A stretch of 20,000 nt of DNA, from the NCBI GenBank assembly GCA_000934665.2, contig KZ538484.1:54842-74841 (forward strand). Direction: 5' to 3'. Numbering within the stretch: position 1 is the first letter of the stretch; the number at the start of each line of letters is the position of its first letter. Shown piece after piece: positions 7,780 through 17,084 of this stretch. Under the pieces are notes generated by a model, which had not been told where the DNA came from, searched no databases, and worked only from the letters and a program-made list of their open reading frames with translations. The translations under genes and the position numbers were made by a program. This DNA comes from Catajapyx aquilonaris. Lineage: Eukaryota.

Positions 7780-8350
7780 CAATTTTTCTCTGCACAGGTA
7801 GTTGGCGACGCCTTCAATTTATTGGCAACCATGTTTATAGTTCTCTTTTTCTTCTTTTTTTCTTGTTTTTGTGTGTGGGTGGGTGTGTCTGAGAAGGCGA
7901 ACGTCCGTGTGTTGTCGGAGATCGCCGTGAAATCCAAGTCCATCGGCTATGATGCCCCCAAGCAAGGTTAGTCTCTTGCTCATCCGGTACCGCTTAAGGG
8001 TCGTGCTCCTCGAAGAGGCTGCAGTTGCTGGTATTCTCTGCGTTTCGGGGGCACGGATGCGAAAGTTTCTCGTTCTGCCTAGTAAATTGGTTGTGGGGAC
8101 AAAATGGCCATGCCCGAGGCCGAGGGGCGGGTTGGTTGTCCACTCATGACACTGAGCCGAAATTATAATCCTCCAGGAAAAGGTCTTCTGTGCATTACCG
8201 TATATATTATCATAGTGTGGAGATAGCCTTAAGCTGGAGCTGCATCGTTTCGTCGTGGTTGATTACGAATGAAAACTTGGACGTCACTCTTCGGCCAATA
8301 TATTCTTGCAAATAATAAACGCCTCTGAACCAATCGAGGTTCCGCAATGG
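7780..8350 (+). promoter_or_regulatory. Probable promoter / 5' region of the Fbxw7-like paralog
   Basis: Locally CpG/GC-richer than the flanks and surrounds the ATG exon. Contains TTGGCGAC/TTGGCAAC motifs (~7800-7830) and GACGTCA plus CCAAT (~8280-8300). The TSS cannot be determined from sequence. Confidence 0.35.
7949..7966 (+). CDS. Putative first coding exon (MMPPSK) of the second, Fbxw7-like gene
   Basis: ATG ATG CCC CCA AGC AAG followed by a strong donor AAG|GTTAGT. Phase 0, compatible with the exon at 11260. Lies in a CpG-richer, promoter-like region. Too short for homology support. Confidence 0.55.
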
Positions 8351-8847
8351 AAATTTTCTATGATGGGGTGAGAAAATTCTCATCTCAATATTATTATATT
8401 ATTTCCTGGGATTTTCCATAGAAAAAGCGACAAAATCGATCATCTTTCTCTGGGACACATTGCCTCCCACTGGTATTATTCAAATCATGCAGCCATGTCA
8501 AGGCTTCCATTAGGTAGTGATTGTTAAAAGTGGTTTCTTCAAGCTCTCTTCAATCTTTCCTCCTCCAATGAAATGATTTTTGTGGAAGGCAACACTTTGG
8601 TGAATATAAACCTGAAAGCAAGAGGCAGGGCTGGTGTTAGGGTAGTGCAGGGCCTTCATTAACAATAAGTAGCAGTTGTTAAAGAAGGTCCTGTGACTGT
8701 ATCCCACCCTAGAGCTTATCTATCTGTCTATCTAAAACTATCTAAGGCTCATCATTGATGTATTCTTGTGGGTTGTGGTAAGCTGTCTGATAGTCATATT
8801 AGGCCTTGCTCACCATTGTACAAGTAACATTGTAATGGAGAATTTAA

Positions 8848-9345
8848 TCTCTCTCTCTCTCTCTCTCTCTCTCTCTCTCTCTCTCTCTCTCTCTCTCTCT
8901 CTCTCTCTCTCTCTCTCTCTCTCTCTCTCTCTCTCTCTCTCTCTCTCTCTCTCTCTCTCTCTCTCTCTCTCTCTCTCTCTCTCTCTCTCTCTCTCTCTCT
9001 CTCTCTCTCTCTCTCTCTCTCTCTCTCTCTCTCTCTCTCTCTCTCTCTCTCTCTCTCTCTCTCTCTCTCTCTCTCTCTCTCTCTCTCTCTCTCTCTCTCT
9101 CTCTCTCTCTCTCTCTCTCTCTCTCTCTCTCTCTCTCTCTCTCTCTCTCTCTCTCTCTCTCTCTCTCTCTCTCTCTCTCTCTCTCTCTCTCTCTCTCTCT
9201 CTCTCTCTCTCTCTCTCTCTCTCTCTCTCTCTCTCTCTCTCTCTCTCTCTCTCTCTCTCTCTCTCTCTCTCTCTCTCTCTCTCTCTCTCTCTCTCTCTCT
9301 CTCTCTCTCTCTCTCTCTCTCTCTCTCTCTCTCTCTCTCTCTCTC
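8848..9345. repeat. (TC)n microsatellite, ~249 units, uninterrupted
   Basis: Read directly from the sequence. It explains the spurious SL and ER repeat ORFs. Confidence 0.99.
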
Positions 9346-14877: not shown

Positions 14878-16257
14878 TGAAAGGTGGTGCTGATAAGTTC
14901 CTGGTTTCTACCATTAATTATTCTAGCTTACTTTCAAAAACACCTTTATCACATGATATCATTTTCTATGGGTCAGATACCATCAGATATCACCTTCTGA
15001 TTGGTAACGTCAAGAGCTAATGGTAACGTATAGTCTACAGTATGTACATGTTGTTTAGGTTTAAAGTTAAGATGACAGGCGACTTCTCACTATTTATCAT
15101 GAAAGAGAGTCCAGCAGTGCTGAAGTACAGTATGTCACTTTAAAAGGACAGTAGGCCAAACAACTTTAAAAATATAATTATGTAGTATGTGTATTACATC
15201 AGGTGATTAGTCTTGCACCTACTACCTTGTGAAAAACTGGATTGATACAATAGGTCATTTCAGCACTGAAGACAAAGAACATTCTGAAAGGCCAGTTGAA
15301 TTGACTGGTCTTGAAAATGTAGATTCCATTTGTTCCATGGTATGAGACCATTCAATAATTTCAGCTTTAAAAAAATAGCAGAGGTCCTAAGCATTTATCA
15401 TGAATGTCTAGGTTTTATAATTTAGGATATATTGAACATGACAGAGCTCTCACCCAAATGGATGCCGAAATGTTTCGATTCTCACCAAAAGCGTGAAGGT
15501 GTTATTCTTTCATGAACGACCATTTTGGAGCATTTTAAGAGGGCTCACTCAGGTTTTTGGTTTCGTCTTGTTACTTGGCTCCGTTTGTATGATCCAAAGA
15601 TGAAACAATCCATGGAATGAAGCATTAGCGGATTCCTTCTTCCAAAAAATTAAGGACACAGAAAATCAGCTTCCAAGGTGATAGTGTGTGTATTCTAGGA
15701 CTAGGATGGAATATTGCTTATTGATTGCCTGTGTAAGGATGCAACAATCACAACAAACTACAGTACTATACATTACATAATAATTATTAACACTTTTGGA
15801 CAAACTGAAGCATGTACGTACTCTACTGGTCTCTAAATGTCACCAAATAATATTGTTTCTCCTGGACAATACATCACTGGCACGGGACCTATCTGGTATC
15901 ACACAGCAGAAAATGGCAGATCTGTGCTTCGAAGTGTTGAAACATCGAGCCTACTCACCTGCCTTGACCCAATCTGACAATTATGATATATTATCTGCTC
16001 CGTAATCTGATGAAACACATGAAGGAGAAGACATTATTGACCCTCGAAGAGGTGATATCCATTGCAGATGAATTATTATTTGTAGCCCAAAACCGTAAGG
16101 AGTTCTACCTAAATTGCGTAAGGCAGATGTAGATGCGTAGTAATAACTGTATTGCACTTTGAGAGGATGATGTTGATTACAATATAATTTATGCATAAAT
16201 TGTGCAGCTCTTAATTTTTCTTAACAAGTCTAGAATTTGTCAGCCCCCCCGCCCTCG
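14878..16257 (+). mobile_element. Decayed full-length mariner (DD34D, irritans-like) transposon; transposase pseudogene
   Basis: TA-flanked degenerate TIRs (TGAAAGGTGGTGCTGATAAGTTCCTGG versus right-end reverse complement CGAGGGCGGGGGGGCTGACAAATTCTAG), 1380 bp. Broken motifs appear in order: KWMPKC (WVP), TWLRLYDP, SASKVIVCVF*D*DGILLIDCL, ILFLLDN, FEVLKHRAYSPALTQSD (YSPDLAPSD). Stops and frameshifts are present. Confidence 0.9.
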
Positions 16258-16973
16258 TATCAGTTGGTTAGTGGTCACAAATGGTGCTGTCACATGTCAT
16301 ATATGATAAAGAATGATTACATACCTTAGGTATTTTTGCACTTAAGTAACAATATGATACTTACACACATCATCCTTAATGTGGTGACATTGTGCCAAAC
16401 ATTCAGTTGAAGAATATGTCAGTAGAGAGAATATTTTGCAAGCCAACTCCATAAGTGTCGTCAGCACACAGGAAAAATACTTCGAGTCCAATTTGGAAGG
16501 TTTGGATTATGTATACTGTACCTCTATGTAGCATTTTTTTTCTGTTTTACATGTCTCCTGGTGAAGACCATTCAGTCCTAAAGATTCATAATGAGCCATC
16601 AAGCCAGGATTTTCTGCTTTCTCTAGCATGTAAGCAAGTGCAAGGTCAAATCCTTGCTTTGGATTATCTCTAAACTCGTTTTTTGGACTTACTTTCACTT
16701 GTATGCAAACGATATGTGCACATGTATGTGCATTACCTACACTGTATGCATTTGAGTTTCGCCAGTGACCTATGATACCGTCTTTTTTATAATTCATACT
16801 CTTAAATCACTCATATATCACTCACATATCACTCATTTATACTGGACATCTAACTCTGTTATTACCACAGTATTACCCAAACATTGCTTTGAGTGCCATT
16901 TTTTCAAGATTTATGAGAATGTGACTCTTTTCAGTAGGGATTGATACCTATTCTTTGTTCTGACATTTTTCAG

Positions 16974-17084
16974 AACTGGAGTAATCCAGAGCGCGCTATG
17001 GCTCTTGAAGAGTTGCTTAAGATTTGTGAGCCAGAGCAAGCCCGTCACGTGATGGAATCAGTTGCGCCTGATCTTCCAAAAGAG
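16974..17084 (+). CDS. Fbxw7-like: Coding exon 4 of the Fbxw7-like paralog: D domain and first F-box residues (LPKE)
   Basis: Acceptor tttttcAG, donor GAG|GTGAGG, 111 nt. NWSNPERAMALEELLKICEPEQARHVMESVAPDLPKE aligns to recalled FBXW7 SWSGPEKLLALDELIDSCEPTQVKHMMQVIEPQFQRDFISLLPKE but is 8 residues shorter. Confidence 0.9.

Follow-up and report, generated by a model that had tools for sequence, protein, structure and literature searches.

Probable D-domain exons of a divergent Fbxw7-type paralogue downstream of the canonical Fbxw7 last exon in Catajapyx aquilonaris

FBXW7, Drosophila archipelago (ago), C. elegans SEL-10 and yeast Cdc4 are SCF (Skp1–cullin–F-box) substrate receptors built from a D domain, an F-box and WD40 repeats. 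Cyclin E, Myc and Notch are regulated by Fbxw7, which is dosage-sensitive and near-invariant and, to our knowledge, single-copy in most animals. Among the papers listed in our literature searches and judged by title or the start of the abstract, none dealt with a duplication of Fbxw7 in arthropods. PMC1802738 places the D domain of the Fbxw7 family directly upstream of the F-box, and describes the FBXW7 alpha, beta and gamma isoforms as products of alternative first exons joined to common exons, and Pop1 and Pop2 of Schizosaccharomyces pombe as two Fbw7 paralogues that dimerize. Here, we describe a 20,000-nucleotide (nt) stretch of the genome of Catajapyx aquilonaris (contig KZ538484.1, positions 54,842 to 74,841; hereafter the window), which holds the 3′ end of an ordinary Fbxw7/ago gene and, ≈12–15 kb downstream on the same strand, probably the D-domain exons of a second gene. 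A sequence-only reading had assigned four exons of this region (7949–7966, 11260–11315, 14410–14506 and 16974–17084, here exons 1–4) to a tandem, divergent Fbxw7 paralogue. We hold, with moderate confidence, that they include the 5′ portion of a genuine Fbxw7-type paralogue, old and divergent, that lies head-to-tail behind the canonical gene, with the dimerization core preserved and the linker to the F-box shortened.

The locus resembles Pop1/Pop2 in that a second Fbw7-type gene would be present in the genome with its dimerization region retained, and the yeast pair provides a precedent for dimers between paralogues. Pop1 and Pop2, however, arose by an independent duplication, are complete genes and have been tested for function, whereas the window gene is known from N-terminal exons alone. 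The FBXW7 isoforms are similar in having different N-termini ahead of a common D domain, but there the alternative first exons precede the shared exons of a single gene, whereas the window exons lie 3′ of the stop codon and flank of the neighbouring gene and include a D-domain exon of their own. Isoform exons of the neighbouring Fbxw7 gene were ruled out on these two grounds.

Exon 4 (16974–17084, + strand; NWSNPERAMALEELLKICEPEQARHVMESVAPDLPKE) is a divergent D-domain exon that ends in the first F-box residues (LPKE) and is eight codons shorter than its canonical counterpart. In tblastn searches, it was matched by all 11 canonical Fbxw7 proteins used as queries (E 7e-10 to 2e-7), and in blastp the exon alone had matches with E < 1e-3 in 68 of the 69 full-length Fbxw7 proteins, with a best value of 6e-11. 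Exon 3 (14410–14506, + strand), the tail of which (PLSEVSSWILTFK) corresponds to the first part of the D domain, gave E = 0.029 when used alone, the match lying in collinear position just ahead of the D-domain exon. When exons 3 and 4 were joined, the top score rose from 47 to 62 bits (+15; E 1.7e-15), and all four exons together gave 4e-17. A HMMER search with exon 4 against 1.84 billion representative sequences returned 10 proteins at E ≤ 0.001. Seven of these, each matched in a single stretch, are short open reading frame (ORF) calls from genomic DNA that contain a canonical D exon with 47–54% identity to the query; the other three (P0124, P0125 and P0127), which are long and have 4–13 matched stretches, were set aside uninspected as probable repetitive helical proteins.

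The seven ORF pieces also reveal the limits of the canonical D exon, which reads ...WSNAER..AL.EL...CEPTQVRHMM.VIEPQFQRDFISLLPKE... in them. A Q precedes x-W-[S/G] in 7/7, as expected from reading through a cag acceptor, and a V follows LLPKE in 6/7, from reading through a gt donor. The limits of exon 4 in the window are identical (...DIFQ/NWS...LPKE/VRHQ, with slashes at the borders), and the alignment places the junction between exons 3 and 4 at the corresponding point. Since exon 4 keeps the parental exon limits, the duplication took place in the DNA, introns included, and not by retroposition, which bears out the intron-retaining duplication proposed from the sequence alone. These alignments show that exon 4, and less firmly exon 3, is homologous to the D-domain exons of Fbxw7, with intron positions kept.

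The better-kept part of the alignment coincides with the dimerization core, S-W-[I/L]-x-x-F-x-x-W-S-x-P-E-R-x-x-A-L-E-E-L-L, followed by C-E-P-x-Q-x-R-H-x-M; the core can also be written SW[IL]..F..WS.PE[RK]..AL[ED]EL[IL]. As in the FBXW7 family, the stretch in the window that aligns to the dimerization region has W, S, P-E-R, A-L, E-L and C-E-P. Exons 3 and 4 align to the D domain and first F-box residues of 68/69 proteins, and thus share with FBXW7, ago, SEL-10 and Cdc4 a D domain directly upstream of the F-box. They also differ from canonical Fbxw7. The window exon is 35–50% identical to canonical genes, which are 74–100% identical among themselves; the proposed model has only 57 residues before the D-domain exon; and QFQRDFIS is missing before LPKE. 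This last difference changes the linker between the D domain and the F-box from V-I-E-P-QFQRDFIS-L-LPKE in canonical proteins to S-V-A-P-D-LPKE in the window, an in-frame loss of eight residues. The conserved linker VIEPQFQRDFISLLPKE is present in all seven canonical exon pieces and in the 11 query proteins, and is not found in the window. Pfam gave only chance-level, sub-threshold matches to exon 4 (RINT1_TIP1, E 0.019; Vts1, E 0.049) and no match to exon 3 or to the Fbxw7 last exon described below. In the PDB, the sole sequence match to exon 4 was a designed helical protein (E 0.0054); chains of Fbxw7 were not recovered.

The last coding exon of the neighbouring gene (2244–2407, + strand) has a cag acceptor at 2241–2243, is read in codons from 2246, and ends in a TGA at 2405–2407. 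Its translation, EFIRNLV...DFDVEPK, corresponds to the final WD40 blade. In a word-indexed protein search, 1044 proteins among 1122 candidates matched at E ≤ 0.001; the 120 matches listed of these 1044 all belong to Fbxw7/ago, come mainly from insects and other arthropods, and have 87–100% identity (96–100% to insect Fbxw7), so that the near-invariant last exon reported upstream of the four exons was confirmed. Three mirid-bug proteins (P0006, P0008 and P0009) are identical to the query over its full length. The exon was matched by 11/11 query proteins in tblastn (E 1e-28 to 3e-24), and by this similarity it is the last coding exon of an Fbxw7 gene of the ordinary arthropod type. The same tblastn search found none of the earlier exons of the canonical gene within the window. 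A sturgeon record marked UNVERIFIED_CONTAM (P0004) contains the last-exon sequence twice (residues 440–492 and 595–649), which is probably a duplication in the model or assembly. The stretch from 2408 to 7060 (+ strand) presumably comprises the 3′ untranslated region (UTR), the extent of which we infer, and intergenic DNA; a hexamer scan for AATAAA or ATTAAA found signals only at 4428 and 7039. There was no self-similarity within the window between the flank of the neighbouring gene and the downstream region, as expected of an old duplication.

The two genes differ sharply in conservation. Relative to a cockroach Fbxw7 reference, the last exon in the window has an identity of 0.98, within the range of the canonical proteins (0.89–1.0). 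The D exon of the canonical proteins has an identity of 0.74–1.0 to this reference (median 0.86) in 68/69 cases, whereas that of exon 4 is 0.35 over the reference and 0.41 over its own length, in agreement with the faster-evolving D domain suggested earlier. The 69th protein (P0009) is a frameshifted mirid-bug model of the same gene as P0008, out of frame across the nuclear localization signal, D domain and F-box and identical to P0008 elsewhere. We considered the possibility that there is only one gene, in which the contigs are mis-ordered and exons 3 and 4 are the D-domain exons of the gene that owns 2244–2407. A single D-domain exon and a single last exon are visible in the window, and the assembly is gapped, as this would require. 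However, such a gene would join a 98%-conserved last exon to a 35–41%-conserved D exon, a combination unparalleled among the 68 proteins, which argues for two different genes. Furthermore, a stop codon and 3′ UTR precede the exons, in a stretch that is uninterrupted up to a repeat. We therefore consider a single gene very improbable.

Neutral drift was simulated for an ungapped block of 45 residues (13 from exon 3 and 32 from exon 4), with the cockroach sequence standing in for the ancestor, by introducing random substitutions until the identity reached the observed 20/45. Decay to this level took ≈0.37 substitutions per site, and 21% of 4,000 simulations (n = 828) were still stop-free. The observed BLOSUM62 score of 133 was reached by none of these 828 (mean 92, standard deviation 10). 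Exons 3 and 4 also retain their four splice dinucleotides, and their sole change in length is a multiple of three; by our own rough arithmetic, all eight splice-site bases would survive such divergence in ≈5% of cases. Together, this argues that exons 3 and 4 diverged under protein-level constraint. The proposal that selection has kept the frame thus stands for exons 3 and 4, where the simulations speak of past constraint.

The four GT–AG exons are indeed phase-compatible, and when joined by their coordinates give a stop-free 282 nt, or 94 amino acids (aa), starting at an ATG (7949) that lies 5,541 nt 3′ of the canonical TGA, on the same strand. Their borders are ATGATGCCCCCAAGCAAG/gt for 7949–7966 and ag/.../gt for 11260–11315, 14410–14506 and 16974–17084. 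Splice sites were scored crudely, by the proportion of pyrimidines ahead of the AG and by agreement with a general donor consensus of 8 bases. On this scale, the acceptor of exon 3 (cag, pyrimidine share 0.89) is the strongest of the model, and the exon ends in a gt donor. The reading frame of exon 3 has no in-frame ATG and is closed upstream at 14354; therefore, some upstream coding exon must exist. Candidate exon 2 (11260–11315, + strand; TDTPDLPHPMKESDTDGK plus 2 nt) is the sole internal exon in 2408–14350 able to feed exon 3 at strict thresholds, which were set near its own scores; at progressively loosened thresholds, it is 1 of 3, 1 of 11 and 1 of 50 candidates. Its splice-score support as the feeder of exon 3 is suggestive only. 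Claimed exon 1 (7949–7966, + strand; MMPPSK, donor 7/8) is one of four equally scored ATG...GT first-exon candidates (7468–7494, 7480–7494, 7949–7966 and 7952–7966). The alternative at 7468–7494 (+ strand; ATG...CAG/gtatgt, donor 7/8) feeds exon 2 in frame equally well. Exon 1 is not required, because the frame of exon 2 itself offers two ATGs, at 11218 and 11287, and translation may start at ATG 11287, inside exon 2, instead of in the 18-nt exon 1. With one of four equal candidates as its first exon and two exons lacking homology, the short new N-terminus of the sequence-only reading is not established. As judged by alignment, support for the 94 residues is limited to the last 69, encoded by exons 3 and 4.

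Several points weigh against a complete, maintained paralogue. Exons 1 and 2 together showed no similarity (best E 3.1). Neither an annotated product nor one deduced from transcripts is known. The tblastn search that recovered the D exon with all 11 queries found no F-box or WD40 exon downstream of it, in 17085–20000, and when 1,067 six-frame pieces of the window were compared with a profile built from 66 canonical F-box segments, the lowest E was 2.4, for a minus-strand piece. WD40 sequence occurs in the window solely as the last exon of the neighbouring gene, and of an F-box (≈45 residues, Skp1-binding) there is only LPKE; the paralogue's own WD40 propeller exons, with the arginines that bind the phosphodegron, would lie past base 20000, and the whole gene is thus assumed. 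No protein of 73–2000 aa sharing words with exon 4 was found in a collection of 5.8 billion clusters, where the query was a 41-aa translation of the exon extended by 12 nt of intron and 12 candidates were retrieved, none of which scored. Among the 1.84 billion representatives searched with HMMER, there was no closer relative of the divergent form (none >54% identity), and a metagenome scan for this form yielded 361 pattern matches and 0 confirmed. The drift simulation uses a stand-in for the ancestor and models no insertions or deletions, and the constraint is perhaps historical, as the gene may since have died downstream.

Most of these points would also suit a partial duplicate or dead gene, in which the copy took in no more than the 5′ exons of Fbxw7, or later lost the remainder by decay, leaving an untranslated relic or a short D-domain peptide. 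The 2.9 kb after exon 4 without F-box or WD40 exons, the protein collections without a product containing exon 4, and the unsupported exons 1 and 2 are all consistent with this, as is the loss of eight residues from a linker present in 7/7 canonical exon pieces. However, conservative substitutions, an open frame, an in-frame deletion and four intact splice sites are unexpected of a long-dead copy at ≈0.37 substitutions per site. Moreover, with proposed introns of 2.5–3.3 kb and a window that ends 2.9 kb after exon 4, the next exon could well fall past base 20000, and we do not count the lack of an F-box in the window against a complete gene. A relic is a possible explanation, but a rather unlikely one, and we retain the view that the exons probably belong to a genuine paralogue of Fbxw7 type, divergent and either whole or partial.

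Two further points of the same kind concern the assembly. The tandem placement depends on the scaffold, because the link between the two genes crosses two weak places. One is a (TC)249 microsatellite (8848–9345, no strand) inside intron 1, which extends for 498 nt with 100% matches; a run of this length without a flaw could, in a draft assembly, stem from gap filling or from a false join. On its right, the adjoining unitig starts within the repeat. The other is a scaffold gap of 64 N (13642–13705), read directly from the sequence, which has ≈12 C at its left edge and ≈17 G at its right and separates exon 2 from exons 3 and 4 within intron 2. At the left edge of this gap ends a copy of a short repeat, the word depth of which is very high (≈2,000 in DNA run X1). 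The last exon and exon 1 thus lie to the left of (TC)249, exon 2 lies between (TC)249 and the gap, and exons 3 and 4 lie to the right of the gap, and the adjacency of the two genes depends on one assembly. In contigs from three DNA runs, compared over 9400–20000, exons 2, 3 and 4 were found on unitigs of 2,303, 2,400 and 705 nt with zero differences from the window. This agreement is not independent support, since the runs are from one sample, which supplied the DNA for four of the five sequencing records listed, and are probably the source of the assembly itself. In run X1, the exon-bearing unitigs have a word depth of 24–31, equal to that of neighbouring unique stretches, although depth is not copy number. 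In the comparison of runs X1, X2, X4 and X5 with 9400–20000, the interval 13530–13705 is bridged by none of the pieces listed, and run X5, of unknown kind, covers only repeats at 17656–17711 and 19802–20000; neither carries weight either way.

It follows that a real, divergent paralogue might not be in tandem, if 13706–20000, or everything to the right of (TC)249, had been wrongly scaffolded here. The 498-nt dinucleotide run and the 64-N gap with its poly-C and poly-G edges both lie between the last exon and exons 3 and 4, in a draft assembly with likely source runs from 2014. On the other hand, the shared strand and head-to-tail order are what a tandem duplication would produce, and exon 2, the best candidate to feed exon 3, sits to the left of the gap. 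We regard wrong scaffolding as unlikely. Strand and order accordingly fit the tandem paralogue of the sequence-only reading, while its adjacency depends on the scaffold.

The window is AT-rich, repeat-laden animal DNA with a GC content of 0.36–0.45, and has a single N at 13051 in addition to the gap. The introns do hold repeats, as shown by stretches of high word depth (10^2 to 10^5) at 11524–12585, 13294–14355, 16480–16833, 17188–17895 and 18604–20000, and by hairpin elements. Near-perfect hairpins with 42–44-nt arms (88–93% complementary), typical of miniature inverted-repeat elements, occur at 7519–7602, 14034–14187 and 17160–17300, the last of which begins 75 nt past the donor of exon 4. 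A short interspersed repeat is present in two copies, ≈80% identical, in opposite orientation at 5901–6100 (+ strand) and 13458–13638 (− strand); scans with ARAGORN and Rfam detected nothing, though part of this repeat is tRNA-like to the eye. An open frame of 175 codons (18774–19301, + strand) lies in DNA with a word depth of 4,000–11,000 and presumably resembles the N-terminal part of a non-long-terminal-repeat reverse transcriptase. The ORF (18774–19298) had no Pfam match, and a protein search for longer relatives gave 1,299 candidates, none of which scored. The end of the window (19666–20000) is extremely repeated, with a summed word depth of ≈10^5 in each of the three DNA runs. Finally, a stop-riddled stretch at 15400–16250 (+ strand) has the word depth of unique DNA, as expected for an old relic. 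Its frames recall what we take to be motifs of mariner-type transposases, but seven ORF pieces from it, six of them from 15426–16129, gave no match in Pfam.

The second gene would have arisen by duplication at the DNA level, most simply as a head-to-tail tandem, and is predicted to continue past the window into F-box and WD40 exons, encoding an SCF substrate receptor. With the dimerization core kept and the F-box linker apparently remodelled, its product could dimerize, either with itself or with canonical Fbxw7, in a changed geometry. By analogy with Pop1/Pop2, one may go further and propose a second Fbxw7 receptor that is maintained by selection beside the canonical gene, pairs with itself or with canonical Fbxw7 through a domain whose linker is eight residues shorter, and presents substrates in a different geometry. 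This extended proposal is speculative, and we think it doubtful that all of it holds.

If the exons are a relic or a scaffolding artefact, they would be an ordinary feature of a draft arthropod assembly. If the extended proposal is true, the paralogue would be a built-in modulator of the turnover of cyclin E, Myc and Notch, perhaps specific to a tissue or to the germline. A retained paralogue with an intact core and a short linker would constitute a natural experiment on how dimer geometry affects the choice of substrate, and would show how a highly constrained gene escapes constraint after duplication.

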